Positions 1 to 32,499 of a stretch of 64,000 bases of DNA are shown here, piece by piece; position 1 is the stretch's first letter; each line of letters opens with the position of its first letter. The DNA comes from Nanobdellota archaeon (lineage in GTDB: Archaea; Nanobdellota; Nanobdellia; Parvarchaeales; Parvarchaeaceae), in the NCBI GenBank assembly GCA_021807085.1, contig JAKAPM010000002.1, positions 9,125-73,124 of the forward strand, read 5' to 3'. The notes under the pieces are model-generated. The model ran no database searches, was not told where the DNA came from, and saw only the letters and a list, made by a program, of their open reading frames with translations. A program made the position numbers and the translations under genes.

Positions 1-2674
1 TCTCCAGGGATTCTCCCTCCTCCAGGACCAGGCTTGGTACGTTGTGCTTTCCATATTCTTCGTTGATGGCGTCGAGTCTGGCCCCGAGCTCTGCCTCCTT
101 TATCTTGAGCGAATTGAATTCCTTCGCCAGTTCGCTCTCCCTGCCCTTGAACTTATCCCTTTCTTTCTCGAGCGAGGATATCTCTTTGGACATCTCCTCC
201 CGCGTCTTCCTGAGTTTGGTTAGGGACTCAGATCTGCTGGCTAACTCCTGCTTCGACTTCTCGAGTCTGGTGGCGACGTCCGTTATGCTCTCGTTTATTT
301 CGCTGATTTCCCTCGCGAACCTAGAGTTCTCTTTTTCCAGGTCCAGACTCCTGCGCGTTATATTATTTAGTTCCGTCTTGAAAACGTTCTCTATCCTGTT
401 CATGGCGGTATTGATGGACACCCTCATCTCGCTGGCTTCCCTGTCGAGCTGTTCTATCTCTTTCCTGTAGTCTGTGAGGTCGGGGCGGATCGAATCCAGC
501 TTCTCGAGCTTATCAGACAGTTCGCCCCTCTCGGCTTCCAGTTTCACTATGGCTTCGGATATCTCCGATTCCGAACCGCCGAATCTTACCCTCTCCCTGC
601 TGGCGGCGCTTATCTTGTTTGCAAGTTCGGCGGATTCCTTCTCCAGCGTCTTTAGCTGCGCCATCATGTAGGCTAGAGAGGATTCCTTTTCGACCAGTTC
701 CGATTCGTAGTTCTCCTTGTTCTTGGTGTGCTCTTCTATGCTCTGGTTCAGTTCGTTTATCTTCTTTGATATTGCGGCTATATTGCTGGCTTCGTAGTGC
801 CCACCGGATATCACCCCGGTTTTCTCCATTATCACGCCGTCGGCTGTCACCATCCTGTACTTACCTATCGAACCTTTCGCCTGTTCGAACCCACTGACGA
901 GAAGGGTGTCGCCGAACACGAACTGCATAGCTTTTTCGAACTTAGGGTCGAAGGACACGAGGTTTATGGTGTAGTCCACTGCGAAATCCAGCTGGGGTTT
1001 CTCCCCGGTACGCACGCCGTATATCTTGTTCAGGGGGATGAAGTTGAGCGAACCGAGTTTTTGGGATTTCAGCCTGTCTATGCAGGCTTTTGCCGTATCG
1101 TCGCCGTCTACGACGACGAATTCCGACCTCCTGCCGATGGACTTGATTATCGAATCTGAGTACCTTAGGTCGTTGACGGTGAAAAGCTCCGCGACTGTTC
1201 CAAACACACCCTCGATTTCCTTGCGCAGTCTATCGGCCATCTCCATTGCCCTGCTCTGGTTGAGTATGCTGCCCCTCGAAGCCAGCACGTTTTCCCTGAG
1301 CCAGTAGAGTTTGTCTGATTCGCCCTTCAAAGCAGACTTGAGCCTGTCGACCTCTGGTTTTATCTCGGAAAACTTGATGGTGAGTTCTTTCTTTTCCGAA
1401 TCGACCCTGTGCTTGGATTCATTGAGCTCGCTAAGTCCAGCCTGCAGCTCAGCCACCTGCGGATACTTGGCCAACGTTAGTTTGTGCTCGTATATTTGCT
1501 TTTCTATCTCATTTGCCCTCTTCTCGTAGGTTTCCTTGTCCTTGAGGTACTTTTCCGACGACAACGCCGATTCGGTAAGCTTCAGCTTCCTGGAGTTGAC
1601 CCCATCGTACTTCTTCCGCAGCGCCTCTATGTCCATGTTCTCTTTGTCTATTGACCCGGTTATTTCCCCTTTGGACGATAAGACCTCCTTGAGTGAGGAT
1701 TCTATTCTGGCCACTTGGTCCTTGTCGGCCTTGAGTATGGTGTTGAGTCTGGTGAGTTCCGATTCGAGTTCCCTGGAGCTGCTCTCCGCCCTGGATATCT
1801 CCTTCTCGCCTTCGGATTCCGCCTGGGTGTTTATGCGGTCTATCTCACTTCTATCGGACGTTATTTTCGAGTCTATTTCCCCGAGTTCCTCGGCAATTTT
1901 CCTGTTGTCCCCGTCGATGCTCCCTATCTTAGAACGCACGCCGCTGAGTTCGCCTTCCACCGCGTTCTTCCTTATCAGTATCTGCTTTGCAAGAAGGGTT
2001 TCCTGCCTCTCTTTTAGCTCCTTGAACTCTATCGCCTTCTTTCGCTCTTTCTCGAGCTGCTCCATCAGCTTCTTCTTCTCGTTAAGTATCGTCTCTATTT
2101 TTGATATGTTACCTTCGACCTTCCTCATCTCGGTCATCGCTTTGGATTTCTTGTCCTCGAAAATGCTTATGCCGGATATGTCGTTTATTATTCGCAGCCG
2201 GTCTTCTGAGCTGTAGCCTATGACCTCGAGTATCTTGCCCTGCGGCACTATGTTGAAGCTGTCCTGCCTCACTTTCACTAGTGACAGGACGTTCACTATC
2301 TCTTCCCTAGTAGACGCCTTTCCGTTGACTCTGTAAACGCTCTTGCCGTTCTTGTCAACCTTCCTGCTGAGGGATATTTCCCTGTCATCGAAGCCGGGAA
2401 ACGACTTGTCTGAGTTGTCCATCAGCACGGTGACCTTGGCGTAATCTGAGGCCCTGCCGTTCTTCCCGCCGTTGAATATCAGGTCAGTCAGAAGCTCGCT
2501 CCTCATCTCCCTCTTCGACGTGCCGCCCAGCACGAACATCATCGCGTCTATTATGTTGCTCTTCCCGGAGCCGTTGGCACCTGCTATCGCATTGAAGCCC
2601 CTGGTAAAATCGAATTTTATGTGACCTGCAAAGGATTTGAAATTCTCCAGTTCTATCTGCTTTACGTAGGTCAT
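1..2674 (-). CDS. smc: SMC chromosome segregation ATPase, N-terminal ~890 aa (partial; C-terminus lies beyond window start)
   Basis: Minus-strand frame is open from ATG at 2674..2672 to the window edge. N-terminus is MTYVKQIELENFKSF...GANGSGKSNI (Walker A), followed by a long E/K/L-rich coiled-coil sequence. Plus-strand Ser-rich ORFs 42..2216 are its antisense shadows. Confidence 0.85.
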   Translation of the reverse strand, partial: MTYVKQIELENFKSFAGHIKFDFTRGFNAIAGANGSGKSNIIDAMMFVLGGTSKREMRSELLTDLIFNGGKNGRASDYAKVTVLMDNSDKSFPGFDDREISLSRKVDKNGKSVYRVNGKASTREEIVNVLSLVKVRQDSFNIVPQGKILEVIGYSSEDRLRIINDISGISIFEDKKSKAMTEMRKVEGNISKIETILNEKKKLMEQLEKERKKAIEFKELKERQETLLAKQILIRKNAVEGELSGVRSKIGSIDGDNRKIAEELGEIDSKITSDRSEIDRINTQAESEGEKEISRAESSSRELESELTRLNTILKADKDQVARIESSLKEVLSSKGEITGSIDKENMDIEALRKKYDGVNSRKLKLTESALSSEKYLKDKETYEKRANEIEKQIYEHKLTLAKYPQVAELQAGLSELNESKHRVDSEKKELTIKFSEIKPEVDRLKSALKGESDKLYWLRENVLASRGSILNQSRAMEMADRLRKEIEGVFGTVAELFTVNDLRYSDSIIKSIGRRSEFVVVDGDDTAKACIDRLKSQKLGSLNFIPLNKIYGVRTGEKPQLDFAVDYTINLVSFDPKFEKAMQFVFGDTLLVSGFEQAKGSIGKYRMVTADGVIMEKTGVISGGHYEASNIAAISKKINELNQSIEEHTKNKENYESELVEKESSLAYMMAQLKTLEKESAELANKISAASRERVRFGGSESEISEAIVKLEAERGELSDKLEKLDSIRPDLTDYRKEIEQLDREASEMRVSINTAMNRIENVFKTELNNITRRSLDLEKENSRFAREISEINESITDVATRLEKSKQELASRSESLTKLRKTREEMSKEISSLEKERDKFKGRESELAKEFNSLKIKEAELGARLDAINEEYGKHNVPSLVLEEGESLE

Positions 2675-2723
2675 AGTGTCTGAATACAATTTTTAATATA
2701 AAATACTAACTAAGTCCGCAGAC

Positions 2724-8956: not shown

Positions 8957-10702
8957 ATGAATACCGGCGAGATAAAAAAGGTCGTTGACAGCTTCGATTC
9001 GCAGAAGACCGGCGCCAAAGAAGTAAACGAGTGGATAAAAGAGCTCAGAGCGAGAGCATCTGGCACGGAAACGCACTACAGGGGAGAGATAGACTTCAGG
9101 TTTGCCAATGAGATGAAACTTCCAGATCCGGGATTCATAGGCAATCCCGACGGCTACTCAGTCACGATGGACATAAGGAAGCGGCACCAGTTCCAAACTG
9201 AATACATGTCAATGAACCAGATGCTGGCTTCTCTTGGGTACTCTAGACTAGCAACCAATGAGAGCATAGACCCGTCGGCTGTCTCAAACCTAATGACTAT
9301 ATTCCTGGACAAGAAGAAGGCCCTCGAAGACAGGGTGATGCAGCTCCTCGGGAACATAAACACCGTGCTCAAATCCGTGATCGCGATAACTTACGAACTC
9401 AAGGAACTAGACAGGAACCTGTCGTTCTACAAGCTCTCAAAAGCTGGTGAGAAGGAGAAAGCAGAGGCGGCAGAGCTGGCGTTAAAGAGAATATTTCTGG
9501 ACAACGTGGACGCAAGGAAAGGCGGAGCCAGCCTATCGTCGCTGTCGAGGTCGTCGACCCAGGCACAGGGCGGAGGACCTGGTTTCATAGATATAGTGGC
9601 GGCGTTCTACCAGGTGAAGAGCCTTAAGGCGATATCGGATCTACAGAGGAACGAACAGTACAAGAACATACTCAAGAACAGGTACATAGAATATGAGGAC
9701 TGGAAGAAAATAAACGGGGAAGACTTGAAGAACAGGAAGAATATGCTCTTACAGTACCTGAAAAGCCAGGTGAGTTCGTTTAACATGTACACCGAATGGG
9801 CAGCCCAGTACATGACGATAATGAACCGCATAAGGATAGAGAGGATAAAGGGGGGAAAAGAACTGGTGAGCTCGAACGCGCCTGCCGACATATTCGAGAC
9901 GGCGATGTTCAAGATAAACATGATCGGGTACAAACAGATGTATCTCAGGGAATACGACATCGAGCACAAGAAGCTTTTCGGGGAGAGAGGCCCTGAGATT
10001 GTGAAAGACGCCGCGCTCAAAACCATAGGCCCAAGGGGTACGCTCATGACCCGGGGACACAAGGAAGACAACAGGTCTTTCATATACAAGCACATCAAAA
10101 AATACGGACCGGTAGTGGTAACGGCAGTGGATACATCGTTCGGCTTCAGGGAAAAACAGGCGTTCCTGCCGGAATTACCGCAGCCTCCTAACGCGCAGTA
10201 CGAAGGGACTTTCTTCCTTACAATCACCCCGCTGTGCTTCACGCTGGACGAGTGGTTCGTATACAAGAAGGCGCTCGAGGCATATTCGAACAAGACGGTG
10301 TTCGCAGGAGTGGACCAGGCGGTATACCATTCGCTCGACATCATAAAAAAGGACCTTGATAAATACATAACGGAGGCAGACGAGGCGGAAAAGGACAAGG
10401 GACCGAAAAAGAAACAGAACGACATGGCACTTAGCGACATATACAGATCCTTCAGGGACGACTTTTTCGGGATATCCAAATCACTATCTCAGCTCGGAGA
10501 ACCTATCAAGAAAGGGGCAGCAGCGCCCTTCAATAAGGAGCTGTACGAGATAGTCATAAACAAAAAGTTCCACAAGACGAACCATAAGGATGCGATAGAG
10601 GCGGGCCTTTTCGTGGCGAACAAGGAAGCCGAAGGCATGTACAACGAATTCAAGAGAAGATCCAAGCTGTTAAACAACCTGTCGCCGTTCACGATATACT
10701 AG
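8957..10702 (+). CDS. hypothetical cytoplasmic protein (581 aa), no recognisable motifs
   Basis: Long ORF with normal composition, no TM segment and no P-loop. Preceded by a TATA-like cttaaatataaaaa at about 8926. Its stop is 4 nt upstream of the mini pilin-like ORF cluster, in the same frame. Confidence 0.6.
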   Translation: MNTGEIKKVVDSFDSQKTGAKEVNEWIKELRARASGTETHYRGEIDFRFANEMKLPDPGFIGNPDGYSVTMDIRKRHQFQTEYMSMNQMLASLGYSRLATNESIDPSAVSNLMTIFLDKKKALEDRVMQLLGNINTVLKSVIAITYELKELDRNLSFYKLSKAGEKEKAEAAELALKRIFLDNVDARKGGASLSSLSRSSTQAQGGGPGFIDIVAAFYQVKSLKAISDLQRNEQYKNILKNRYIEYEDWKKINGEDLKNRKNMLLQYLKSQVSSFNMYTEWAAQYMTIMNRIRIERIKGGKELVSSNAPADIFETAMFKINMIGYKQMYLREYDIEHKKLFGERGPEIVKDAALKTIGPRGTLMTRGHKEDNRSFIYKHIKKYGPVVVTAVDTSFGFREKQAFLPELPQPPNAQYEGTFFLTITPLCFTLDEWFVYKKALEAYSNKTVFAGVDQAVYHSLDIIKKDLDKYITEADEAEKDKGPKKKQNDMALSDIYRSFRDDFFGISKSLSQLGEPIKKGAAAPFNKELYEIVINKKFHKTNHKDAIEAGLFVANKEAEGMYNEFKRRSKLLNNLSPFTIY

Positions 10703-10705
10703 GGT

Positions 10706-10876
10706 ATGGAAAGAGGCCAGATGCCGGTAACTGAGATAATAGCTATAATCCTTGCGATCATAGTCCTGCTGGTTGGGATAGCTATAGCACTCTACTTGTC
10801 GCACGGAGGGAACAGCATCTCGACTGCTATAGTGCAGCTGTTTTCGTTCAGATGGCTGTACGGTGGCGGACTGTGA
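10706..10876 (+). CDS. mini pilin-like protein 1 (56 aa; class III-like N-terminus MERG|QMPVTEIIAIILAIIVLLVG)
   Basis: Short basic N-terminus ending R-G, followed by a hydrophobic helix of about 22 residues. Not in the ORF track because it is under 60 aa. Confidence 0.45.
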   Translation: MERGQMPVTEIIAIILAIIVLLVGIAIALYLSHGGNSISTAIVQLFSFRWLYGGGL

Positions 10877-11043
10877 ACAACAGAGGTGTAATAAGCGCGT
10901 TCTTCACGTATATCATACTCATAATAATAGGGATAGTGCTGATACTGATATTCCTAGAGTTATTCACGCCCTACAAGATATCGTCGGTCTTCGGGAATTT
11001 TATATCCTCGCTGACCAACATAAACCCGGGTAGATATGCTTAA
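10852..11043 (+). CDS. mini pilin-like protein 2 (63 aa; ...NNRG|VISAFFTYIILIIIGIVLILIF)
   Basis: In the ORF track. RG followed by a hydrophobic helix of about 24 residues. Overlaps ORF 1 by 25 nt. Confidence 0.45.
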   Translation: MAVRWRTVNNRGVISAFFTYIILIIIGIVLILIFLELFTPYKISSVFGNFISSLTNINPGRYA

Positions 11044-11182
11044 CAGGGGCGTTTCGGATTTCATGCTCCTTCTGATAGTAACAATCATAGTGCTAATCGT
11101 AATAGTGATATTCTATCTCGTATTATATTCACCTTCGTCGCTAGAGCACATACTGCCCAAGTTTCCGTCCATACCGGTGTAG
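11036..11182 (+). CDS. mini pilin-like protein 3 (48 aa; MLNRG|VSDFMLLLIVTIIVLIVIVIFYLVL)
   Basis: RG plus a hydrophobic helix. Overlaps ORF 2 by 8 nt. Confidence 0.45.
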   Translation: MLNRGVSDFMLLLIVTIIVLIVIVIFYLVLYSPSSLEHILPKFPSIPV

Positions 11183-11185
11183 AAT

Positions 11186-11347
11186 ATGGAAGCTATCTGG
11201 TTCTACATACTCGCTGTCATATTGGGTGTTGTATTGGTGATTACTTATATATTGTTGGTAGGTCCAGCCGTGATATTGAAGGACATAACTGGCGCATTCA
11301 CTGGTTTTGAAAATTCTCTGTTTTCTGCGTTTGGAAAAGCGTACTGA
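11186..11347 (+). CDS. small hydrophobic protein 4 (53 aa; MEAIWFYILAVILGVVLVITYILLVG...)
   Basis: Begins 4 nt after ORF 3. Single TM helix and no RG motif. Confidence 0.4.
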   Translation: MEAIWFYILAVILGVVLVITYILLVGPAVILKDITGAFTGFENSLFSAFGKAY

Positions 11348-13494: not shown

Positions 13495-13944
13495 TCAGGA
13501 TTTTATCTGCACTATACTCTCGCAGAATCCTCCGGATTTGTAGGTCTGCCCGCCTATCTCCACGGAGCTGCCTGTCGTGTTACCTATGAAGATGTTGTTA
13601 CCCGGCTGCAGCTGGAAATCCTGCGAGAATATGCTTGAACCTACAAAGTATGCACCGGCGAAAACCGGACCGGTCAGCGGAGGAATCTCGGCGTAAACGC
13701 TGTAATTCAGACCGGGACTGCCTTCCGACACTGTGACCCTGAAATAATCCGTCTTGGTAGGGGTGCTGACGTTGACCGCCGATATGTTGCACTGGGCGGG
13801 ACTACCGGTGAGCGACGGATTAGTTTGGCCTATGGCTAGCAACGAGAAGTGGAACACGGAGCTCGCTACCAGTATGCCTATCACTACGAAGGATATAAGG
13901 AGGACCATTATGATGATATAATCTATCGTAGATGTTCCTGTCAT
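13495..13944 (-). CDS. pilin-like extracellular protein (149 aa), last gene of five-gene operon
   Basis: N-terminus MTG|TSTIDYIIIMVLLISFVVIGILVA (G followed by a hydrophobic helix). Mature part is Ser/Thr/Gly-rich. Confidence 0.6.
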   Translation of the reverse strand: MTGTSTIDYIIIMVLLISFVVIGILVASSVFHFSLLAIGQTNPSLTGSPAQCNISAVNVSTPTKTDYFRVTVSEGSPGLNYSVYAEIPPLTGPVFAGAYFVGSSIFSQDFQLQPGNNIFIGNTTGSSVEIGGQTYKSGGFCESIVQIKS

Positions 13945-13945
13945 A

Positions 13946-15439
13946 TCAGGCCGCCACCGCGCACAAGTACATCTGATTCATGCCGAGGTAAGCAGCGCTG
14001 TCCACGTGCAGGTTCTGCTGGAACCAGCCGACTATCGAGCCTGCACACTGCTCCAGACCGCTTGTCTTGAAAAGAGTGGTACCCACAAGATTCGGGATGT
14101 TGGACAGCACATAATTGTTGCAGAAGGTATTGGTCTTGCATCCTGCACTGCTGGCACCTATGACTATCCCGCTCGCAGCAGCTCCGGCTATGGATCCGAA
14201 GCTCAACGAGGCGCTCGGAAGGCCGCGCGTGAGCAGCGCATAGGTCGTTACTGCCCTGGAACACTCGTACTCTATCCCGGAAGTCGGGTAATTTACGACG
14301 AAACTGGTCTGTACGCATTCGGACGGAAGCGTGACTTTGTCGGGAGGGAACCTCGTCCCGACGAGGCTGTTCAGGTAGACGATGTAGAGCTGTGCCTTCG
14401 ATATGGACTTGTTGCTGTCTATCGGCACCGCGTTGGCACTCCCTGATGTCTTGTTCTTGTAGCTGTAGTTGACGGTGAAGCCGGGCCTGAGGTAGTTGAA
14501 ATAGGATACGTTCACCACGGAAGTCGGCTTAACAGGTTCTGTTATCTGGCAGGTGTTCGGGACCTCGTAGGAATTCAGCACCGAATCGTAGCCGATGGAG
14601 CACACGTAATCCCCGCTCTGGTTCTTTGCGCAGAAGTCTGTGTACGGCGTAGAGCATCCTGTCGTGGCGCCGTCCTGATTGGTGCACGTACCGACGGAAG
14701 TGTTAAAGGAACAGCCCTCCGACGCGGAACACAAGTACTGCGGTAGGTCGTTGTACGCGGTGTTGGGGGCGGTGGAACTGTAAAGGGGCACAACCGTCAG
14801 CGAGTAACCCTGTGTGAAGGAGGTGTAGCCTGGCTGGTCGAAGCAGCTGAAGAAATCGCTGTTGTTGGATATGCATTCACTGGGATTGTTAAAGTTGCAT
14901 GAGAAGCCGTTCGGATTGGATGATGAGAAAGGGTCAGCGCACGCTTGTGCGGCGGTGTGGTTGAGGCAGCTCACTTCTGTCGTGAAGGGTGTGTTCTGTA
15001 GATATGTGGTCAAGTTGCCAAAGGTTATGTTTTGGTTCAGATCCAGGCTTATAATGCTGCATATCCTCGTGGCGCCGGGGGACACCGTAAGTCCCTGCGA
15101 ACCGCCGTACTGGTCCCAGCATTCGGACAGCGCGGTAGCCACTCCGGAGAAGACACTGGGAGTGGACGCCCCGCTGGAGAAAGTCTGGGACGAAGTGGTG
15201 CAGCCGAAATCGGGGGGATTTATGCCATAGGACTGCAAGGTCGAGCTCAGGCAGAAGAAATTCGAGAAACACAAGTCGTTATAGAAGAAATTCGACACCT
15301 GCGAACTCGCGTAGCACGTGGTAGCGTTGGAGAACCCAACGCCCAGGAATAGGAAGGATGCGAATATGACTATTATGAATATCATGAATATCACTGACAG
15401 GATGATGAAAATGAAGTTCTCTCCCGGCGTCTCAGGCAT
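13946..15439 (-). CDS. Cys-rich extracellular protein with pilin-like N-terminal helix (497 aa)
   Basis: MPETPG|ENFIFIILSVIFMIFIIVIFA, then about 470 aa rich in Cys (more than 25), Asn, Ser and Thr with many N-x-S/T sequons. Confidence 0.6.
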   Translation of the reverse strand: MPETPGENFIFIILSVIFMIFIIVIFASFLFLGVGFSNATTCYASSQVSNFFYNDLCFSNFFCLSSTLQSYGINPPDFGCTTSSQTFSSGASTPSVFSGVATALSECWDQYGGSQGLTVSPGATRICSIISLDLNQNITFGNLTTYLQNTPFTTEVSCLNHTAAQACADPFSSSNPNGFSCNFNNPSECISNNSDFFSCFDQPGYTSFTQGYSLTVVPLYSSTAPNTAYNDLPQYLCSASEGCSFNTSVGTCTNQDGATTGCSTPYTDFCAKNQSGDYVCSIGYDSVLNSYEVPNTCQITEPVKPTSVVNVSYFNYLRPGFTVNYSYKNKTSGSANAVPIDSNKSISKAQLYIVYLNSLVGTRFPPDKVTLPSECVQTSFVVNYPTSGIEYECSRAVTTYALLTRGLPSASLSFGSIAGAAASGIVIGASSAGCKTNTFCNNYVLSNIPNLVGTTLFKTSGLEQCAGSIVGWFQQNLHVDSAAYLGMNQMYLCAVAA

Positions 15440-15472
15440 AAACTAATAGAGTCACTGTCCACTATATATCGT

Positions 15473-16366
15473 TTATTTCGAAGTTATGCACACGAACACT
15501 CTGCTCTGTTTGTACACCATGGCGTTCGTGAGATAACCGCACTGCGGGATGTAGTAGGTGCACCCCGTGCTCAGGTTTCTCACCACCTTCGAGGGGTCGC
15601 CGTTGCTTAGGGAGCTGACCGTGCTCCGGGTCTCTGGAACGGTCTGGTTGCCGTAATAGCACTCGGCCGGGTCCAGCACCGGCTGCTGGTAGTTAGACGT
15701 CAGTATGCACTGGTCCTGGAAGGGTATTGTGCAGTCCTGCGGCGGATTGGTGGAGGGATAGCCGAAATACGAAACGAGATAACTGGAATTGGAGATTAAA
15801 TCCGACGGATTTACGTACTGTGCGCTGCCCCCGGTGCCATTGGTTATGAAAACTATCTGCAGCGGGTAGGAATTGTTGTAAGCGTTGTCTAGGGAACGTA
15901 TAAGCTGGCCATAGTCTACGCTGGTGCCGCTGCTGGGTGAGAGGATGCCGTAATAGCATTCGAACACTTGGTTCATGTTGGAGCTGCTTATCACGCTGTT
16001 TCCAGTGCCGCTGGTTGCACCGTGGAACAGGGAGAAGCACGACGACGCGTCCGCGAACAGCCTGCTGCTAACGTCGGACGTGGAGGAGAAGGCTATGTTC
16101 GAGCTCTGGAGGCACGATATCTGGACCTGGGCTGCCTGTTCGGGAGAGACGTAGTACTGCGATAAGCCGAAATAAGACGCTACGTACGTCAGGGGTGATA
16201 CGATAGAGTTTATCAGGTTGTACTGTTCGAACGCCACGAAACAGCTGAACCCGAAATTTATAGTGCTGATATCAGTTATTATCTGGAAGGAGAAAATCGC
16301 CACGATTATTCCGGCGATAACCACCAGGAAAACGGCTATTATCGTCAGTATTATCCCCTCCTCCAT
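15473..16366 (-). CDS. extracellular protein with pilin-like N-terminal helix (297 aa)
   Basis: MEEG|IILTIIAVFLVVIAGIIVAIFSF, then a Cys/Ser/Asn-rich domain. Confidence 0.6.
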   Translation of the reverse strand: MEEGIILTIIAVFLVVIAGIIVAIFSFQIITDISTINFGFSCFVAFEQYNLINSIVSPLTYVASYFGLSQYYVSPEQAAQVQISCLQSSNIAFSSTSDVSSRLFADASSCFSLFHGATSGTGNSVISSSNMNQVFECYYGILSPSSGTSVDYGQLIRSLDNAYNNSYPLQIVFITNGTGGSAQYVNPSDLISNSSYLVSYFGYPSTNPPQDCTIPFQDQCILTSNYQQPVLDPAECYYGNQTVPETRSTVSSLSNGDPSKVVRNLSTGCTYYIPQCGYLTNAMVYKQSRVFVCITSK

Positions 16367-16548
16367 CAGGCGCCTCCGCCGCCAAGAATGTTACCGAAGT
16401 ATGAGAACGGGGATTGCCCGTGCGAACTCACGTAGAACATGAGTGCCAGGACTGTTATGGCGATTACGAACGTTATCACCACTATTATGAGCCACGTTAT
16501 CCTCCACTCGACGCTGCCTTTGTTATTAATCATACCATCACTGGCCAA
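16366..16548 (-). CDS. small pilin-like protein (60 aa; ...NNKG|SVEWRITWLIIVVITFVIAITVLALMF)
   Basis: K-G followed by a hydrophobic helix and a GGGGA tail. Translationally coupled to its neighbours by overlapping stop/start codons. Confidence 0.5.
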   Translation of the reverse strand: MASDGMINNKGSVEWRITWLIIVVITFVIAITVLALMFYVSSHGQSPFSYFGNILGGGGA

Positions 16549-17044
16549 CGCACGGCGGACAGTACGGACTGTCGCCCTTCACGCACGCTGGTGTGCTCAT
16601 GTCGCAGTTCTCTATGACCGTGGCATTGTTGGCCACCACCGTGCTCTGGTCGCAGCTGAACAGGTCCGCTGTGTTGGATGGCGAGACCACCTTGCACGCG
16701 TTTAGGACCGACTGCGGCGGGGCTGATATGCAGTTCTGTACGCTGACGTAGTCCCCCTGGCCGTTCTTGTAATAGAGATAGTAGCATTCGTTGCTCAGGC
16801 ACGTCTGGTAGGCGGATGACTGGTTGTAGCAGGCGTCGGTCCCGTAGCACCTGAAGAGGGGCGTCCCTTCCATCCTGTTAGGATAACCGTATTCAGCGCT
16901 GGTGAACTGGTTCTCCAGTATGTCGTTGTTATTGCACCCCACCGGGAAGACCGACGAGAAATTCTGGTAGAAGGACACGAAGAGCACGATAGACACCGCT
17001 ATGCCGAATCCCACCTCGAACAGCATGAATTGTTCGTCGTCCAT
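16538..17044 (-). CDS. Cys-rich extracellular protein with N-terminal hydrophobic helix (168 aa), first gene of operon
   Basis: MDDEQFMLFEVGFGIAVSIVLFVSF, then a domain with about 14 Cys. Promoter-like ttgatttttattatgaaaaa lies about 20-30 nt upstream on the minus strand (plus coordinates about 17060-17078). Confidence 0.6.
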   Translation of the reverse strand: MDDEQFMLFEVGFGIAVSIVLFVSFYQNFSSVFPVGCNNNDILENQFTSAEYGYPNRMEGTPLFRCYGTDACYNQSSAYQTCLSNECYYLYYKNGQGDYVSVQNCISAPPQSVLNACKVVSPSNTADLFSCDQSTVVANNATVIENCDMSTPACVKGDSPYCPPCVGQ

Positions 17045-17125
17045 GTGATATCTTAGAGTTTTTCATAATAAAAATCAATCACCGGCACGGTGCGTACAGA
17101 ATTATCCGTCACTGGAAAACGCGGC

Positions 17126-17530
17126 TCAGCGCGCAGAATCAGCCATCAGAACTTCGTACCAGCTGCTCTGGCCGTCGTCTACCAGGAAATAAGAGCCGAG
17201 TACCCTCATGTTGCTGTACTTTCTGGATGCCCTGCTCTCTGCTATCCTCTGCTTGCTGATGTTGAGATTGTAGAATATACCCGATTTGCTTGGCCTCCTG
17301 GCATGCGTGGCCCTGGGTCTCCTGAAACTCCCCTTTCCTATCCTGACCCTAACGACAACGTAACCCGGCTTGGCTCTGTACCCAAGCTCCCTCGCCCTGT
17401 AGAGCTTGGACGGACGCTCGATACGTTCGATTAGCGGGCCGTTCCTGGCTTCGGTGAGCAGCTGTTTAACCCTTTCCCTGTTCTTGTAGATGTTCCTCTC
17501 GTTATTGCGTATGTACTTGGATGCTCCCAT
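17126..17530 (-). CDS. rpl15e: 50S ribosomal protein L15e
   Basis: 134 aa. ERPSKLYRARELGYRAKPGYVVVRVRIGKGSFRRPR...RASRKYSNMRVLGSYFLVDDGQSSWYEVLMAD matches the L15e core. Shorter than typical L15e. Confidence 0.8.
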   Translation of the reverse strand: MGASKYIRNNERNIYKNRERVKQLLTEARNGPLIERIERPSKLYRARELGYRAKPGYVVVRVRIGKGSFRRPRATHARRPSKSGIFYNLNISKQRIAESRASRKYSNMRVLGSYFLVDDGQSSWYEVLMADSAR

Positions 17531-17577
17531 AGGAATTAATCTAAAAACTGGAAGTATAAATAACTATCACCAGTTCG

Positions 17578-18009
17578 TCATACCGACACAGAACCCTTGG
17601 CCGCTATCGTGGGCGGTGAGGATATGTTCATCGGGGTGTAATATATGTAGACCAGCCCGGAAAAATGTGATGTGGCGGTATAGGTTATGTTGCATTCGTA
17701 GTAGGCAAGAGTCTGCAAGTACCCGCCCCCGCACCCGGTATAGTTCTGGGAGCCGATTATCAGCGACACTGCGTCGATTTTTACGTTCTCGTTGAGTAGG
17801 TTTTGGACCTTCATGTAGAATATGCTGGACGGGGCGTAGTAACCTATTGCGATCACGTCGAAACCCTGCAGTCCGGAATAGGTTGCGGAAGTCGAGGCCT
17901 GTGAGAAGGTGGGGAAGAACGTAAGTACGAGCGAGACTGCGAGGATTATCGCCACCACCGCCAGCCCGTAGATAATGGCTATCTCCAGCGACATCTGCGC
18001 GCGCATCAT
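17578..18009 (-). CDS. type IV pilin-like protein with class III signal peptide (143 aa)
   Basis: MMRA|QMSLEIAIIYGLAVVAIILAVSLVLTFF: [KR][GA] then Q with a hydrophobic helix. Ser/Thr/Tyr-rich mature domain. The overlapping ORF 17567..18013 in another frame is rejected. Confidence 0.7.
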   Translation of the reverse strand: MMRAQMSLEIAIIYGLAVVAIILAVSLVLTFFPTFSQASTSATYSGLQGFDVIAIGYYAPSSIFYMKVQNLLNENVKIDAVSLIIGSQNYTGCGGGYLQTLAYYECNITYTATSHFSGLVYIYYTPMNISSPPTIAAKGSVSV

Positions 18010-18043
18010 ACAAAGGAGTTGGCTCCCATAGGATATTAATCTA

Positions 18044-18114
18044 AGCCTCCAGAGGGAGTTGAACCCTCGTCTCCTGCTTACGAAGCAGATGCTCTACCGC
18101 TGAGCTATGGAGGC
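18044..18114 (-). tRNA. tRNA-Thr (anticodon CGU)
   Basis: Folded manually: acceptor GCCTCCA/TGGAGGC, D-arm GCTC-AGCGGTA-GAGC, anticodon stem TCTGC/GCAGG with loop TTCGTAA, T-arm GAGGG-TTCAACT-CCCTC. No encoded CCA. Confidence 0.8.
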
Positions 18115-18123: not shown

Positions 18124-18294
18124 AACCCTACGTTCTTCCGTGTTCTTTTCTTGTATTCGCCATCGCTTATTATATGTTTTCTAGCTTCGAAACTCTTGCC
18201 GCAGAAGAAGCATTTGACCTGTCCGAGCGAAGATGTGCGCCTGAAGTTGCCGCAGTTCGGACACCTGACCATCCTCACCGGCATAGTATCATTC
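18124..18294 (-). CDS. small zinc-ribbon protein (56 aa)
   Basis: MPVRMVRCPNCGNFRRTSSLGQVKCFFCGKSFEARKHIISDGEYKKRTRKNVGFR; C-x2-C...C-x2-C. Not in the ORF track (under 60 aa). Function unknown. Confidence 0.45.
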
Positions 18295-19011
18295 CCCGAC
18301 CAGAGATCCGGCCAGCTCGAAAAATGCCCTGGAAGAGGCTAGTTTCCTGTCCCAAAGAACCACCGGCAGACCCTGTTTCAGGGCGGAGTATAGGGACTTG
18401 TCTTCGGGGACTATCCACGTGTTGCTTATTCCAGTTATTTCGGATGCTTCCCTCTCGCCTACTCTGTCCCTGATTCTCCTGTCGTACCTGTTCATCACCA
18501 GCCCCAGGACGTTCACGCCGCTGCTCCTGAGTTCGTCGTTCAGCTTCCTCGCTTCTATCATCGCGGTTATCTCCGGGACTGAAACTATTATGGCGCTGAT
18601 GCCGCGTATCGCCTTGACGAAGTCGACGTCGTACGACGGCTTTGAGTCTATTATTATGAAATCGTAGTTTCTCTCCACTTTCTGTATCTGGTAGAACAGG
18701 TTTATTATCTTGTACCTCGCGTTGCCGTCGCCCCTCCCCTTGAACACCCTGGACGGGAGGATGTGCAGGTTGTTCACGTCTGTCTTGTATATGGCGTATT
18801 CGACCGGCACGGAGCTGTTGAACACGTCCTCCAGAGAATATTTATACCCGACGAAGCCGAAATATATCGCCACGTGCGGCGTCTCTAGATTCGCGTCTAT
18901 TATCAGAGTCTTCTTTCCCAGCGATGCCAGCGTCGCGGCGATGTTGACCGACGTGGTCGTCTTGCCGACCCCTCCCTTCGGGCTCATGACAGCTATAACT
19001 TTGGCTACCAT
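18289..19011 (-). CDS. ParA/MinD-family P-loop ATPase
   Basis: 240 aa. Deviant Walker A SPKGGVGKTTTSVN, and Walker B IIIDSKP. Confidence 0.8.
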   Translation of the reverse strand: MVAKVIAVMSPKGGVGKTTTSVNIAATLASLGKKTLIIDANLETPHVAIYFGFVGYKYSLEDVFNSSVPVEYAIYKTDVNNLHILPSRVFKGRGDGNARYKIINLFYQIQKVERNYDFIIIDSKPSYDVDFVKAIRGISAIIVSVPEITAMIEARKLNDELRSSGVNVLGLVMNRYDRRIRDRVGEREASEITGISNTWIVPEDKSLYSALKQGLPVVLWDRKLASSRAFFELAGSLVGE

Positions 19012-19864: not shown

Positions 19865-20392
19865 TCAACCGCACTGCGGGGCGCTGCTATTGATGGACAG
19901 ACATATGTACCGCAGTATCTCGTTATCCGCGGCTGTCGCGTTTGTGAATCCACCTATCTTGTAATATTCCCCATTGAACACTATCAACGGGACCCTTCCC
20001 TGGGACAGCTGGTCGAACAGATTCATTGCGGACAGAGGGGCGTCGACCGAAGACGCGTTTTGGTTGTAAGCGCTGACGTTGAACTTCCACGCGCAGAAAT
20101 ATCCGCTGTAGAACCTGTCTCCAGTCCACAGGCCAAAAAGGGAGGTGGTATTCACGAACGACCCTATCTCGGTGTACGTGGAGGTTGTGTTGGGTCCGTA
20201 GAACAGAACCACGGAAGGCTCGCCGCCGTTGCACAGATACGATACGTTGATGTCTGCCGAGTGGAAAGCGTAGAGCGAATCGAAATAGTCCACCCTATCC
20301 ACCAGAAAAACAGTGACAACGACGATGAACACGGCGAACGCGGCGTAGGCGTACATCAGTTTTCTGCCCCTAACCGACGTAGAACGACGCAT
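19865..20392 (-). CDS. membrane-anchored extracellular protein (175 aa)
   Basis: Basic N-terminus then TM anchor, MRRSTSVRGRKLMYAYAAFAVFIVVVTVFLV. N-glycosylation sequons. Overlaps the upstream gene by 23 nt. Confidence 0.55.
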   Translation of the reverse strand: MRRSTSVRGRKLMYAYAAFAVFIVVVTVFLVDRVDYFDSLYAFHSADINVSYLCNGGEPSVVLFYGPNTTSTYTEIGSFVNTTSLFGLWTGDRFYSGYFCAWKFNVSAYNQNASSVDAPLSAMNLFDQLSQGRVPLIVFNGEYYKIGGFTNATAADNEILRYICLSINSSAPQCG

Positions 20393-21260
20393 TTATAGCC
20401 TCCATCTCAGAACTGTTGCACGTATTGGTGGCGGTGACGGAACATATGTTGGTAACGTCCGCGCCAAGGCCGGAATACAGTGATGCATACACAGGATTTA
20501 GAAAAGCGCTCTCGTTCGTCACTATGTTGAATATATGAGCCGGCGAATCGCATGCTGTGGCGTTCAGGAGATGAAAGGTCCTGAACGTGAAGGGCCCGTA
20601 GAAGGACACATCGTTGGACACCACACTGCCATTGCCGAAGAGCATAGTATTCTGCCCCAGTTCCTTAAGGGATAAAATAGTGCCGATCATATTGGTCTCG
20701 TTGCCGAACTTCGTGGAGTTGACCAGTCTTGCATCGTATACCACAGGCGCAGCGCTGGGGAGACTGCTAAGGTTCGAAGCCAACAGCTCGCTGTAGAGGG
20801 AGTAGACCTCGAACGCGGTCTGGTTGTACATCTCTTCTATGTCGCTGGCGTTCAGCGTGGATATCAGTACAGACAGGTTGTCCCTGGCCCGTGCGCAGAT
20901 GCTTATATTGGCCACCTCGCACATCGACAGCAGGCCAGTGTCCTTGACGATGGAGGCATACTCGCTGCCGCTCGGTGTGCCGAAATATTGGGAGGGCAGC
21001 TGCGGAAACGCGGGAACTATCACGTAGTTGCAGCCGAACACGATGGAATTATTGACCTGGCTGCCGTAGAAGGCGTTCACCGAGGTTATGTTGGGTATGG
21101 AATATTCGCCAACGAATAGACTCTGCGCCAGCCTGTTCGCGTCCTGCTGGACCAGCAGACCGGACTTGTAGCTGTAGTTCACGTACATGAATGCTACTGC
21201 GACGGCAAGAAAGACCGCTACGGCGAACAGTGCAATCGTCAGGCTATTTATCTTTGCCAT
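20370..21260 (-). CDS. secreted/anchored Asn/Ser-rich glycoprotein-like protein (296 aa)
   Basis: MAKINSLTIALFAVAVFLAVAVAFMYV signal/anchor. Many N-x-S/T sequons. Confidence 0.55.
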   Translation of the reverse strand: MAKINSLTIALFAVAVFLAVAVAFMYVNYSYKSGLLVQQDANRLAQSLFVGEYSIPNITSVNAFYGSQVNNSIVFGCNYVIVPAFPQLPSQYFGTPSGSEYASIVKDTGLLSMCEVANISICARARDNLSVLISTLNASDIEEMYNQTAFEVYSLYSELLASNLSSLPSAAPVVYDARLVNSTKFGNETNMIGTILSLKELGQNTMLFGNGSVVSNDVSFYGPFTFRTFHLLNATACDSPAHIFNIVTNESAFLNPVYASLYSGLGADVTNICSVTATNTCNSSEMEAINASFYVG

Positions 21261-25412: not shown

Positions 25413-26075
25413 ATGAGGGCGCAGTTTTCCTTCGAATTCGTCGTAGATGTAGCCCTTGCACTGGTCATCATAGGGTTCATAGTGGCCTTCTTTTCCTCCA
25501 TAACCACTAACAATACAGCCGCAGGGGATATGAACGGGATATGCAGTCTAATAGCCGATTCTGTGAACTCGGTCGTGAATTCCGGCGGCCTGTCCGCAAC
25601 GGTTTACCTTCCGCTGCAGAATATGACCGCAGCGGCTAATTACACGATAAACGTCTCAAACGGGGTCATAATAGTATACGCTTACTTCAACAAGAAGATA
25701 CCCGCGAAGTTCCTGTCCGGGACAAACGTCGTATCCTGCGGAGCCAACACCCGCGCCACGGCCAACGAATCGTTCGAACCTGCCAACCTGGTGCTGTACG
25801 CCAACTACAGCGACGTGGCTATAGGGTACGTGTACGCCAACTACAGCGCCAACTATTACCCATACTTCGTCTACGTCGGCGGATTCTACGGGAAGGCTAC
25901 TCTATACCTCCAGTATTCGAACGGCACCCTGCTGAAGCTTATGGACGCCACTTCCCCCTATATATACAACGCCAACGTAGGCCTTCCGATACTGACTACG
26001 GGCGAGTACACGCTGCTTGTGGAGGCGGACAACAACACAGCTCTGAGTGCCAGTCAGAGTTTCACGCTCGCTTAA
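25413..26075 (+). CDS. type IV pilin-like protein with class III signal peptide (220 aa)
   Basis: MRA|QFSFEFVVDVALALVIIGFIVAFF. Mature domain is Asn/Tyr/Ala-rich. Confidence 0.7.
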   Translation: MRAQFSFEFVVDVALALVIIGFIVAFFSSITTNNTAAGDMNGICSLIADSVNSVVNSGGLSATVYLPLQNMTAAANYTINVSNGVIIVYAYFNKKIPAKFLSGTNVVSCGANTRATANESFEPANLVLYANYSDVAIGYVYANYSANYYPYFVYVGGFYGKATLYLQYSNGTLLKLMDATSPYIYNANVGLPILTTGEYTLLVEADNNTALSASQSFTLA

Positions 26076-26126: not shown

Positions 26127-26603
26127 ATGGTAAAAAGAGCACAGTCGGCTTTGGAGTACATGATGACGTATGGTTGGGCCATACTAATCATAGTAATCGT
26201 AGCTGCTGTCCTGTACTCGATGGGCATATTCAACCCTTCGAGCAGCGTAACCACGTCGTCGAGCGGCTTCAGCCCGTTCACCGTCAGCGCGGCGCTTTGC
26301 AACAGCTCAGGTACATGGGTATCTTTCGTTGTAGGCGGTTATCCTAACGGTGCACAGAGCGCGACCAGCGTGACCCTGACCCTCACCGCGACAAGCGGCG
26401 CGAGCGGCAGCGGCACTGCAACTGCAATCGGATCGCCGACATACACGTCTGGCACAAGCTTCAAAATGACAGCTGCTGGCGTAACATGCGCGACAGCCGG
26501 AGGAAAGTTCTCCGAGAGTGGTTCGATAGGTTACTCGGTAACCACGACACTAGGTGCGCAGTCTTACACAACGACGGGTACGGTAGCAGGATCAGCTAGT
26601 TAA
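26127..26603 (+). CDS. type IV pilin (class III signal peptide), Ser/Thr/Gly-rich, candidate major pilin (158 aa)
   Basis: MVKRA|QSALEYMMTYGWAILIIVIVAAVLYSMGIF. TATA-like aagtatacttaaatag about 27 nt upstream (leaderless). Followed by an oligo-T terminator at 26610..26640. Confidence 0.8.
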   Translation: MVKRAQSALEYMMTYGWAILIIVIVAAVLYSMGIFNPSSSVTTSSSGFSPFTVSAALCNSSGTWVSFVVGGYPNGAQSATSVTLTLTATSGASGSGTATAIGSPTYTSGTSFKMTAAGVTCATAGGKFSESGSIGYSVTTTLGAQSYTTTGTVAGSAS

Positions 26604-28984: not shown

Positions 28985-29833
28985 TTATCTCCGGAACCCT
29001 TTCGCAGCTCCAAGTGTGTACGCGTTCACCTTGTCCATGTTCAATACTGTATTGTCAGCAGCATCGATAAGGCCGTCTCTCAGTCTACCCTGCGCATCTA
29101 TGGAAAAAGCATCCGTGGACAGAAGTCTCCTTATCTTGGTCACCGCATCGCCGACGTTATCGCCGGATAGTCCGCCAGCAAAGCATATGTTTCCCCCGAA
29201 ACCGCTGCTTTTCAGTTCGTTATATATAATCCCAAGTTCCTCTATCTTCAAAGAGACTCCTCTCCCTCCTGATGGGTCCAGTATTACGTAATCTGAGCCG
29301 CTGTAATCTCTCATAATCCTATCAGCTGTCTGGTACGGTCGCAGGTTCTGCATGGCCTTCCTTGTCGCAGACAGTATTATCATCAGACTGGGATAATTCT
29401 CCTTTAGTTTACGGATGGAATCTTTCGGCGGCCAGGTTACATTGAGCTGTACACCAAGCCCGGGATTGTCCTTGTATATATTGTCTTTTTCGAGGACTGA
29501 CGATAGCTCGTAATAAAGGTTTCCGACGTCTTTCGTATTGTAGTGTATGGTATTGAAGGCTTTTCCACGCGATGTTTCAATCAAGTCTGCGAGGTCTCTT
29601 AACGGCGGATATCTCTTGTCTCCCGGGTTGTACCCAAATTCCAGGGTTTTGTAGGAGACCAAGTAACCAATCATTGGAATATGAGTCGTATTCATATCTA
29701 TGCCCGACCTTTCGAATGCCTTTAGGCAGCCCACGACCTCGTGCTTAGACGTTGCACCGGTTATGCCTATATAGTTTTTACCGGCTGCAGTTCGGTCGTG
29801 ATAGTCCAGCTTTGCTTCTAGTTTTTCTGACAT
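28985..29833 (-). CDS. hypothetical protein (282 aa), possibly TIM-barrel-like
   Basis: C-terminal FAGGLSGDNVGDAV resembles a phosphate-binding loop of TIM-barrel enzymes. GC is somewhat lower than the core genes. Confidence 0.45.
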   Translation of the reverse strand: MSEKLEAKLDYHDRTAAGKNYIGITGATSKHEVVGCLKAFERSGIDMNTTHIPMIGYLVSYKTLEFGYNPGDKRYPPLRDLADLIETSRGKAFNTIHYNTKDVGNLYYELSSVLEKDNIYKDNPGLGVQLNVTWPPKDSIRKLKENYPSLMIILSATRKAMQNLRPYQTADRIMRDYSGSDYVILDPSGGRGVSLKIEELGIIYNELKSSGFGGNICFAGGLSGDNVGDAVTKIRRLLSTDAFSIDAQGRLRDGLIDAADNTVLNMDKVNAYTLGAAKGFRR

Positions 29834-30086
29834 ACCCTAATAAGATTAAATTCTGTATAAATAGATTAACGAAAGAGAGATATTGTATATCATTCATGCG
29901 GCTTTCTTCAGTATTTTCGACACATAATCTATGTCAGTAAAAACTAAAACCTACCGATTTATTTATTGCAAGTTGCCCACATCATCCAGGCTGTAGAATA
30001 TCTTTCCATTGGGCTTTATTCTCTTGAACTCTTCCAGTTCTTTGCCCCGACCGGGTGCCGACATTTCTGTCATATTAGAATGATAT

Positions 30087-31070
30087 TTAATGTTTGTTGT
30101 TATATTTAAATCCATGCAATAGAATTCTTACTACCATAATTTCAGATGTGTCATATATTGTTTCTATTAAGAGTTCTCCCGATTCTTTATTTTTTTCTAC
30201 CCATTCTTTTATGGTTTTTACGTTTGTGGGATTTATGCCATGGATGAAAAAGCCTGGAAATTCATAGGTATAAGAACTAATAATTTTTTGCTTTACCTCA
30301 TCTTCTAAATCATCTATTGACATGTTGCTATTAACAAAAATTGCTAACACAGCATTTTTTATAACTAATTCATATATTGAATCAGCTTTCTTGCGTTCTG
30401 TATAAGAATAGAGTGGATAAATAAATTTTTCAAAATAATCTGCATTACATAAGTTAGCTATATTATTACCACGCATACCAAATCTTTGACTTATTTGTTG
30501 TTTTAGATGCACAATATTTTTTCCCTTTTTACTTTGAGATCTTAAAAATAAAGAGTTTGCTAAGGCATCCAGATCATATTCGGGAATTTTATCTTTGAAA
30601 TACTCTAATAATGCATCATCCGCTCTTTTATTTTGTGAGGAGTTATAACTAGCAAGTTCATCAAATATCTCTAAATCCTCGGCTCTAAAGATTGCTTTAT
30701 CACGTTCGGTTTTACGTTCGATTAATATCTTAGATAACTCTTCTTTTTCTGAATCTGTTAATTTGTCCGCATTTATAATCAGTTGTCTTTTACCTTCTAA
30801 ATAAAGCACTTTTTCACTGTTTTCATTAGATGTTGTTACCCCTACTTGCTCTACAATTTCTTCTTTTTGCTCCGTTTTTTGTGAGGGGGTATTATAGAAG
30901 ATATTCACTGTACCAACATCATGTATGTTTATTGATTTTTTGCCAGAACTAACATTGTTATTGCTCCCACTAATAGTTTTAACATCTACACTATCATTAT
31001 TTGTTTCGTGTTCGCCACCAAGTATCTTTTTTACAAATTCTAATGCAAGAATAAGATAGTGGTGTACCAT
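30087..31070 (-). CDS. hypothetical protein of integrated element (327 aa)
   Basis: AT-rich ORF (Asn/Lys/Ile-rich) with no motif recognised. Confidence 0.5.
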   Translation of the reverse strand: MVHHYLILALEFVKKILGGEHETNNDSVDVKTISGSNNNVSSGKKSINIHDVGTVNIFYNTPSQKTEQKEEIVEQVGVTTSNENSEKVLYLEGKRQLIINADKLTDSEKEELSKILIERKTERDKAIFRAEDLEIFDELASYNSSQNKRADDALLEYFKDKIPEYDLDALANSLFLRSQSKKGKNIVHLKQQISQRFGMRGNNIANLCNADYFEKFIYPLYSYTERKKADSIYELVIKNAVLAIFVNSNMSIDDLEDEVKQKIISSYTYEFPGFFIHGINPTNVKTIKEWVEKNKESGELLIETIYDTSEIMVVRILLHGFKYNNKH

Positions 31071-31076
31071 ACCACA

Positions 31077-32389: not shown

Positions 32390-32499
32390 AATTTAAGCTT
32401 TCTCCGGCTGCTCTCGTATCTCTTCCACGGTCACCCTGACGACCTTGCCGGCTAGAGAGTTTGAAAGGATTAAAATTAAACGAGGGATTATAATAATTA

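Follow-up and report, generated by a model that had tools for sequence, protein, structure and literature searches.

The bacterial Tad (Flp) pilus is composed of the Flp pilin, the pseudopilins TadE and TadF and the membrane-anchored TadG, which are encoded after tadA and tadB/tadC. In archaea, the Epd pili of Methanococcus maripaludis comprise the major pilin MMP1685 and the minor pilins MMP0233, MMP0236 and MMP0237, together with the peptidase EppA and a FleN/MinD ATPase (PMC4858521). Some type IV pilus loci of archaea include a FleN/MinD ATPase, and nearly all components of the Thermoproteales clade 4E pilus loci contain multiple conserved cysteines (PMC4858521). In type IV pilus loci of DPANN archaea, unannotated signal-peptide proteins have already been predicted as pilins in general terms (PMC6393860). 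Here we describe five adjacent genes, P1 to P5, which lie on a 64,000-nucleotide stretch (the window) of contig JAKAPM010000002.1 from an acid-mine-drainage Parvarchaeota, an ARMAN-4/5-like DPANN archaeon.

DPANN archaea need physical contact with their hosts, and the mode of attachment is poorly known. Electron cryotomography of ARMAN cells shows pili-like links, to which no genes have been tied (PMC4110969, PMC5864196). Because genes homologous to the P1-P4 series are found directly behind a type IV pilus motor in related archaea, P1-P5 are most likely parts of a pilus-like attachment filament. With confidence a little better than even, we read them as the structural (non-motor) module of a Tad/Epd-type type IV filament system in one DPANN lineage. 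Our claim is that the module acts together with a type IV pilus and probably in a similar manner; as sequence membership in the curated pilin families fails, we do not assign it to any named family. It supplies concrete candidate proteins for a host-contact apparatus.

The five-gene module and its motor-linked relatives

The genes and the two TATA-like elements beside them are arranged as follows, a slash marking the leader junction:

16538-17044, minus strand: P1, 168 amino acids, 12 cysteines; N-terminal hydrophobic anchor or signal without a Gly/Ala cleavage motif
16366-16548, minus strand: P2, mini-protein, a Flp-like mini-pilin candidate; MINNKG/SVEWRITW
15473-16366, minus strand: P3, 297 amino acids, 10 invariant cysteines; N-terminus MEEG/IILT
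13946-15439, minus strand: P4, 497 amino acids, 24 invariant cysteines; leader MPETPG/E; the largest subunit
13495-13944, minus strand: P5, 149 amino acids, pilin-like; start MTG/TSTIDY
17065-17074, minus strand: TATA-like element TTTTTATTAT, about 20 nt ahead of the P1 ATG
15462-15472, minus strand: second TATA-like element ACGATATATAG, within the 33-nt gap between P3 and P4

An earlier reading made from the sequence alone (the sequence-only reading) had described five co-oriented, translationally coupled genes of 168, 60, 297, 497 and 149 amino acids behind one TATA-like element. All five were found on the minus strand between 13495 and 17044. As claimed, their packing is tight: P1 and P2 are separated by 4 nt (P2 counted from its ATG), P2 and P3 overlap by 1 nt (TGATG), and P4 and P5 are 1 nt apart. 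Only P3 and P4 are further from each other, with 33 nt between them. The length of P2 depends on the start chosen: TTG at 16548 gives 60 amino acids and ATG at 16533 gives 55, the latter being the pick of the gene caller on an identical Logan contig (L001). An element does stand before P1, but because ACGATATATAG, a possible internal promoter, lies between P3 and P4, a single promoter for all five genes is uncertain.

Homologs of P4 and P3 form 27 and 31 clusters, respectively, all of them from Candidatus Parvarchaeota or Parvarchaeum and including BJBARM5_0310 of ARMAN-5. These clusters align with P4 and P3 over the full length and keep invariant cysteine patterns. When 1.84 billion representative proteins were searched exhaustively with a profile, only 27 relatives of P4 were returned. 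The synteny is unchanged in three further Parvarchaeota loci from different assemblies, where SecF, SecD, four unknown genes, MinD/FleN, tRNA-Thr, a class III pilin, L15e and P1-P5 follow each other on one strand, with a Zn-ribbon gene on the opposite strand between the four unknowns and MinD/FleN. Convergent to this block, on the other strand, lie the genes for Hef, Gins, four proteins of about 50 amino acids and an unknown 581-amino-acid protein. Apart from the lack of database annotation, nothing points to P1-P5 being chance or mis-called reading frames; the full-length homolog clusters with their invariant cysteines and the synteny in three further loci refute that idea, to which we give practically no weight. 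The module is real, conserved and uncharacterised, and it is not a new class of machine.

The evidence that carries the filament reading comes from more distant relatives. In locus L009, a T2SSE ATPase of 749 amino acids (Pfam, E=3e-17) is followed by a polytopic protein of 688 amino acids (T2SSF, E=6e-4, below the Pfam cutoff), downstream of which lie a P1-like gene (144 amino acids, 12 cysteines), a small open reading frame (ORF), a P3-like gene (323 amino acids, KKG/VSL) and a P4-like gene (460 amino acids, MKKKG/MLE). L011, from a Nanoarchaeota genome bin, contains an ATPase, a platform gene, P1, a 44-amino-acid ORF, P3 and P4, and after P4 a 61-amino-acid protein, two canonical pilins of the MKAQG/LPLNT type and a 59-amino-acid MPVRG/AIQLG protein; the mini-proteins of this locus carry the junctions KG/AVSIAL and MPVRG/AIQLG. 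In L091, the ATPase, platform, P1-like, P3-like and P4-like genes are followed by a 52-amino-acid MRKG/VVV protein before the contig ends. The same gene order is kept in part in L007 and L010, and the partial locus L007 includes an MKKG/IVINQ protein plus two MKAQG canonical pilins. In these distant loci, P1 is the first gene after the platform gene. The weakest relatives of P4 (E=1e-16 to 1e-34) are charged proteins from non-acidophiles with 460-582 amino acids and 26-32 cysteines. Hence the claimed link of P1-P5 to a type IV pilus-like system gains support from the P1-P2-P3-P4 series that stands directly downstream of the ATPase and platform in L009, L011 and L091, where Flp-like mini-pilins of about 50 amino acids come next, and from the leaders of P2 and P5. 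P1, in contrast, is not pilin-like at its N-terminus.

A genome scan with the platform alignment yielded 223 relatives. Nearly all of the 80 listed are labelled DPANN (Woesearchaeota, Nanoarchaeia), and the remaining labels among them (such as 'Methanosarcinales', 'Euryarchaeota' and 'Acidobacteriota' bins) are probable mislabels. The ATPase adjoins the platform gene in 64 of these 80 loci. Within the platform family, several proteins are annotated with PF00482 or with the JGI name 'Flp pilus assembly protein TadB'. On a groundwater DPANN contig (L093, 5014-9375), the platform-adjacent T2SSE ATPase is 1453 amino acids long and contains an intein (Intein_splicing, LAGLIDADG_3). The conserved module of P1, P2, P3, P4 and mini-pilins is motor-coupled in some Nanoarchaeia and unlinked in the acid-mine Parvarchaeota.

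Leaders, topology and composition of P1-P5

P2 and P5 are predicted from their alignments to carry class III-type leaders. The P2 orthologs read MDKRG/LIEWR, MNKKA/SVEWR and MDKKG/SVEWR, that is, [KR][GA] before the helix, and the window copy has NNKG. A Gly-to-Ala change at the class III junction is a substitution tolerated by prepilin peptidases. The P5 orthologs have the junctions KVKG/ASAVEY (L004), NKKG/STSVEK and GKRG/SSAIEK, compared with MTG/TSTIDY in the window; the Gly is conserved, and D or E is found at +5 in all four sequences. A longer P5 leader from an upstream start was rejected, because a stop is reached 12 codons upstream and none of the intervening codons is ATG, GTG or TTG. 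Elsewhere the acidic residue is placed differently, with E at +3 in P2 and at +1 in P4 and none in P3. The Gly before the helix is invariant in P3 (G4, 17 of 17 sequences), as are G6 and E7 of P4 (19 of 19) while the helix residues vary, and distant P4 homologs begin with LNKKG/E, MKKKG/M, MKG/L or NSKG/E.

A Kyte-Doolittle scan gave one hydrophobic segment per protein, located at the N-terminus, and none elsewhere, so that each of P1-P5 has an N-terminal helix of at least about 20 residues as its sole membrane segment. AlphaFold places these helices at residues 5-32 of P4 and 2-28 of P3. Classical Sec signal peptides were considered for P2-P5 and rejected, as their hydrophobic segments of about 25-35 residues are too long compared with the 7-15 or so expected; P1 of L007 (...LLSAG/SRY) could fit an ordinary AxA-type signal-peptidase site. 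Charged residues (K+R+D+E) make up 5.5-12.5% of P1-P5 versus 27-28% of the cytoplasmic Hef and thermosome encoded in the same window, and cysteine accounts for 7.1% of P1, 3.4% of P3 and 4.8% of P4 versus 0.2-0.4% of Hef and thermosome. N-x-S/T sequons number 3, 0, 5, 11 and 4 from P1 to P5. These values bear out the description of the mature parts as rich in cysteines and sequons, except that the more than 25 cysteines announced for the 497-amino-acid protein are in fact 24. All 24 are invariant in 19 P4 homologs. Within the acid-mine lineage, all 10 cysteines of P3 are invariant too, and the P4 sequons N137, N142 and N160 (N-x-T) are conserved. Among eight P1 sequences, eight positions are invariant, five of them cysteines.

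P3 and P4 are probable paralogs, as judged by profile comparison. A first hhalign run with acid-mine sequences only aligned nothing beyond the membrane helix; when distant members were added, the broadened alignments matched with 84% probability (E=8e-6) over the N-terminal 200 or so residues, pairing LSECWDQYG of P4 with ASSCFSLFHG of P3. Both proteins have a C[WF]xx[YF]G motif and a C-terminal strand of the C[ED]DK[IV]xxC[IV] type, and a single ORF of L014 matches the hidden Markov models (HMMs) of both.

From these features, a working scheme may be drawn for a system that would be specific to one DPANN lineage, the class Nanoarchaeia, including Parvarchaeales. P2 (Flp-like, about 50 amino acids) and P5 (a helix plus a beta-rich domain) would be true class III pilins. 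P3 and P4 would be paralogous pilin-like subunits in which an N-terminal helix is followed by a large extracellular domain, glycosylated and stabilised by disulfides, possibly 5 in P3 and 12 in P4. Together with the small, Cys-rich P1, they may assemble into a minor-pilin, priming or tip complex from which the filament starts and which bears its adhesive surface, with P4 as the candidate tip or adhesin protein. The genes, their conservation, topology-type features and leader motifs and the motor linkage of the homologous module in other lineages are observed; the disulfide-rich tip or adhesin role of P3/P4, as well as cleavage, incorporation into the filament, tip position and adhesion in general, is what we infer. 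The subunits would insert with the N-terminus in and the C-terminus out, the leader, if present, would be cut after the conserved Gly by a prepilin peptidase, and extrusion would be driven by a FlaI/TadA-like ATPase with a TadC/FlaJ-like platform, whose genes in this lineage would be unlinked and located elsewhere in the genome.

Several observations weigh against this scheme, and the leaders provide the first of them. P1 begins with MDDEQFMLFEV..., and no common Gly/Ala cleavage motif is present in eight aligned P1 sequences. No basic residue is found at -2 in the leaders of P3, P4 and the window P5, which are acidic or just 3-6 residues long (MEEG, MPETPG, MTG). A FlaFind-style pattern matches only P3 among the five, and some distant homologs of P3, P4 and P2 have no Gly or no leader at all. 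Furthermore, one-to-one orthology and fixed gene order over large distances are unusual for fast-evolving pilins. In terms of the sequence-only reading, short leaders ending in Gly are thus present in P2 (MINNKG), P3, P4 and P5 but not in P1; the absence of Lys/Arg at -2 is true of P3, P4 and the window P5, whereas P2 reads KG and the P5 orthologs KG or RG; and the class III signal proposed for all five is matched by pattern in P3 alone, appears in P2 and in the orthologs of P2 and P5 and is missing from P1.

The same observations favour a second explanation, in which the filament system is the same but P1, P3 and P4 are uncleaved bitopic proteins that form an extracellular base, collar or anchor, comparable to FlaF/FlaG or bacterial PilN/PilO/TadG, so that only P2, P5 and the mini-pilins polymerise. 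Besides the missing P1 motif, the short acidic leaders of P3/P4 without a basic -2 residue and the homologs of these two without Gly or leader, the strict orthology, the fixed order and the slot right after the platform gene are all reminiscent of core machine parts. Against uncleaved anchors stand the pre-helix Gly, which is invariant in P3 and, together with E7, in P4 next to a varying helix, and the textbook KKG leaders of distant homologs. A fixed order is found in bacterial minor-pilin operons too, such as gspHIJK and fimU-pilVWXY1E. We rank the uncleaved anchor second, as a serious possibility of clearly lower probability than the structural module with cleaved pilins. Since P3 and P4 lack the basic -2 residue and several of their distant homologs lack the Gly, cleavage and filament entry of these two proteins are putative.

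The shortness of the leaders also admits a bolder proposal, namely that P1, P3 and P4 constitute more than a set of minor pilins: a disulfide-locked tip machine, restricted to this DPANN lineage, whose subunits are largely independent of prepilin peptidase and in which P4 residues ~394-462 engage or perturb the host membrane. Peptidase independence is suggested by leaders that consist of 3-6 acidic residues or are absent, as in the fourth mini-protein described below and in distant P2/P3/P4 homologs, and P4 ~394-462 is a Gly/Ala-rich, moderately hydrophobic C-terminal region. Although we think this improbable, it would, if true, be the machinery with which Parvarchaeota adhere to their Thermoplasmatales hosts or open contacts with them. 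In any case, the leaderless fourth mini-protein and the MTG leader of P5 suggest an ongoing loss of leaders in this lineage. Such a gradation towards reduced or vanishing leaders among pilin-like proteins bears on how strictly type IV assembly depends on leader processing.

Family membership and fold are a further point on the contrary side. P1-P5 have no sequence match to pilin, TadE or flagellin families in Pfam or NCBIfam: for P1, P3, P4 and P5, no match to any family was obtained at E<=0.1, and P2 gave sub-threshold matches only, to unrelated families, none of them a pilin family. None of the five proteins matches any solved structure. AlphaFold2 models built from the family alignments are weak, with a predicted local distance difference test score (pLDDT) of 60 and a predicted template modelling score (pTM) of 0.42 for P4, and a pLDDT of 52 and a pTM of 0.58 for P3, and they give no clear pilin fold; in the P4 model, residues 80-390 are of moderate confidence with a mixed alpha/beta structure, and 394-462 are unreliable.

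Finally, no ATPase, platform or peptidase of acid-mine Parvarchaeota was recovered from the window, from its left flank or among the platform-profile matches listed. As the sequence-only reading had stated for the ATPase and platform, HMMs built here for the T2SSE ATPase and the platform matched no ORF of the window; no dedicated prepilin peptidase was found there either. About 10 kb beyond the left end of the window contain SMC and housekeeping genes and no ATPase or platform. Among the matches listed, the protein search with the platform profile gave other DPANN lineages only, the most divergent coming from groundwater. Of the 47 loci in which sufficient sequence follows the platform gene, only 10 encode a Cys-rich N-anchored protein within 8 kb downstream of it, and 11 encode a mini-pilin there. 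In L090, an intermediate Parvarchaeales locus, P2-P3-P4 adjoin eIF2-alpha and Nop10. Given the linkage in only 10 of 47 loci and this position of the L090 module, unlinking from the motor is recurrent. A locus free of machinery is not unusual: archaea commonly encode stand-alone pilin sets (PMC4858521), and linkage is also absent from many homologous DPANN loci. Genome bins of acid-mine sediment Parvarchaeota encode virB11 and TadC (PMC7779479), and pilins are reported for all Parvarchaeales (PMC10134863). Moreover, with at least seven further class III-type genes in the window, the organism must possess both a peptidase and a system for pilin assembly. The earlier pilus reading is thus largely right, and its puzzle of the missing machinery is largely explained as lineage-specific unlinking.

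The dispersed arrangement and the lack of homology to pilin families could also mean that P1-P5 form an envelope complex independent of type IV machinery, made of signal-anchored, glycosylated, disulfide-rich proteins for wall or host contact, whose adjacency to pilus genes elsewhere merely reflects a shared neighbourhood of envelope genes. The operon does lie among housekeeping genes (L15e, Hef, Gins) and near SecDF and other N-anchored proteins, and the L090 module beside eIF2-alpha and Nop10 fits as well. Such a shared neighbourhood hardly accounts for at least three distant loci in which the module, with class III mini-pilins among its genes, keeps its order and comes immediately downstream of the ATPase and platform, or for the conserved class III motifs of P2 and P5. 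An envelope complex is thus unlikely in our estimation, and the filament reading, with P1-P5 as a structural module, is retained as the preferred explanation.

Other class III-type genes and neighbouring features

The window contains further genes and elements around or related to the module:

10706-11347, plus strand: four mini-protein genes of about 50 amino acids each, with class III-type leaders in the family
8957-10702, plus strand: 581-amino-acid protein, soluble, Lys-rich, no Pfam match, no Walker A by eye
17080-17092: terminator-like hairpin plus T-run after L15e, preceding the TTTTTATTAT box
17126-17530, minus strand: ribosomal protein L15e, only 134 amino acids, covering positions 2-136 of the 191-position Pfam model
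17578-18009, minus strand: canonical class III pilin, 143 amino acids, MMRA/QMSLEIAIIY, upstream of L15e
18289-19011, minus strand: ATPase of the MinD/FleN family, with a conserved place immediately upstream of tRNA-Thr and the pilin
25413-26075, plus strand: class III pilin, MRAQ/FSFEF..., no Pfam match
26127-26603, plus strand: class III pilin, MVKRA/QSALEYMMTYGWAIL..., in tandem with 25413-26075, no Pfam match
45833-49198, minus strand: 1121-amino-acid protein with a class III-type N-terminus ...KSQ/SALEYMMTYGWAILIIV and NHL/beta-propeller repeats (Pfam NHL, E=8e-17)

Besides P1-P5, there are four canonical class III genes (17578-18009, 25413-26075, 26127-26603 and 45833-49198), which together with the four mini-protein genes make up the at least seven further class III-type genes. 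With the exception of 17578-18009, none of these had been tied to the locus in the sequence-only reading. The pilin at 17578-18009, whose place beyond L15e and class III N-terminus MMRA/QMSLEI had been recognised correctly, is always upstream of L15e and P1-P5 in acid-mine Parvarchaeota; its only family match is a sub-threshold one to TIGR04205 (E=0.07). From its domain composition, the 1121-amino-acid NHL protein looks like a pilin-anchored adhesin.

The leaders of the mini-protein family read [KR]G/[EQ]MP[IV]TEII or KKG/V[ST]D[FY]. The first mini-protein ends in SFRWLY, similar to the 52-amino-acid gene directly after P4 in L091 (ALSFRWLFE). Because of the same design and this shared ending, we count the four mini-proteins as probable members of the P1-P5 system, set apart from it by the Gins and Hef genes. 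The predicted mature forms would have about 45 amino acids, which is comparable with Flp pilins. The fourth (11186-11347, plus strand) starts leaderless with MEAIWFY, as does its L004 counterpart with MESVWFY, roughly at the predicted mature N-terminus, whereas the orthologs in L002 (14201-14377) and L006 (14092-14280) carry a full leader (...NKKG/VTEAT...).

The 581-amino-acid gene ends 3 nt before the mini-pilin genes, and this position is kept in all acid-mine Parvarchaeota loci. A homolog (E=3e-18) was found in Woesearchaeota L062, where genes for a pilus ATPase and platform lie about 8 kb away. As a component of the system the protein was rejected, since this only pilus-near homolog is parted from its pilus locus by unrelated genes. 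Whether the MinD/FleN ATPase is a member of the pilus system is uncertain. Between SecD and the MinD-like gene (19865-21260, minus strand), two N-anchored, sequon-rich proteins of 175 and 296 amino acids, with 7 and 15 sequons and no family match, are kept in all Parvarchaeota loci.

L15e has a length of 134-135 amino acids in every Parvarchaeota locus seen, and the hairpin with T-run at 17080-17092 would be expected to terminate its transcript. A near-identical stretch of 22-23 nt, TTAGATTAAT(A)TCCTATGGGAGC, occurs twice on the minus strand: the copy at 17523-17544 spans the L15e start codon, and the copy at 18022-18044 lies between tRNA-Thr and the pilin gene and opens an ORF of just 7 codons. 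The pair may be a duplicated 5' region.

Two other parts of the window are worth recording. A low-GC island at ~29800-32930 (guanine-cytosine fraction 0.35 versus about 0.52 elsewhere) contains a tyrosine recombinase gene (31433-32389, Phage_integrase, E=4e-11) beside a tRNA (32839-32926) that was found by Rfam and missed by ARAGORN and may contain an intron; the island is probably an integrated mobile element. Window positions 1-2700 (minus strand), strongly skewed and without listed ORFs, correspond to the 3' part of an SMC gene extending past the start of the window, as seen in L094 and L095.

Comparison with described filament systems

The Thermoproteales clade 4E loci resemble the present module in their disulfide-stabilised secreted parts, among them large proteins with signal peptides that have been interpreted as adhesins or minor pilins. 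They belong to another lineage and to other protein families, and the comparison is one of descriptions. In FlaF/FlaG of the archaellum, too, the pilin-like N-terminal helix is not preceded by a canonical cleaved leader, and the extracellular domain is situated at the filament base; in contrast, P1-P5 have no archaellin or FlaG family match, and P3/P4 are much larger and Cys-rich.

The GspH-I-J-K complex and the FimU-PilV-W-X plus PilY1 tip complex are similar in that an ordered operon encodes four or five pilin-like proteins with a proposed function in priming or adhesion, and in that the largest member, which caps the filament there and would do so here, lacks the usual conserved Glu. They are, however, bacterial complexes of known folds, and no sequence or fold similarity to P1-P5 was detected.

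Among archaeal systems, Epd pili share with the module the co-encoded minor pilins (essential in Epd, proposed here), the class III-type signals and a MinD/FleN ATPase nearby, as well as a short major pilin whose gene may lie at another site. They differ in that no homology is detectable, the P1-P5 leaders often lack K/R at -2 or are absent, the cysteine content is extreme and no peptidase was found in the window.

The Tad pilus differs from the module as well, since P1-P5 match neither TadE, TadG nor Flp in sequence, P1/P3/P4 are Cys-rich, P3 and P4 are probable paralogs, and the present host, as a monoderm archaeon, has no secretin, RcpA or TadD; in its lineage the module is unlinked from the motor. 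Nevertheless, the Tad likeness is seen at several levels: the order of ATPase, platform and then N-terminally hydrophobic proteins of rising size, the TadC-like platform, the pilins of about 50 amino acids and a junction of the G/xxxxE[YF] type, as in P5 of L004 (KG/ASAVEY).

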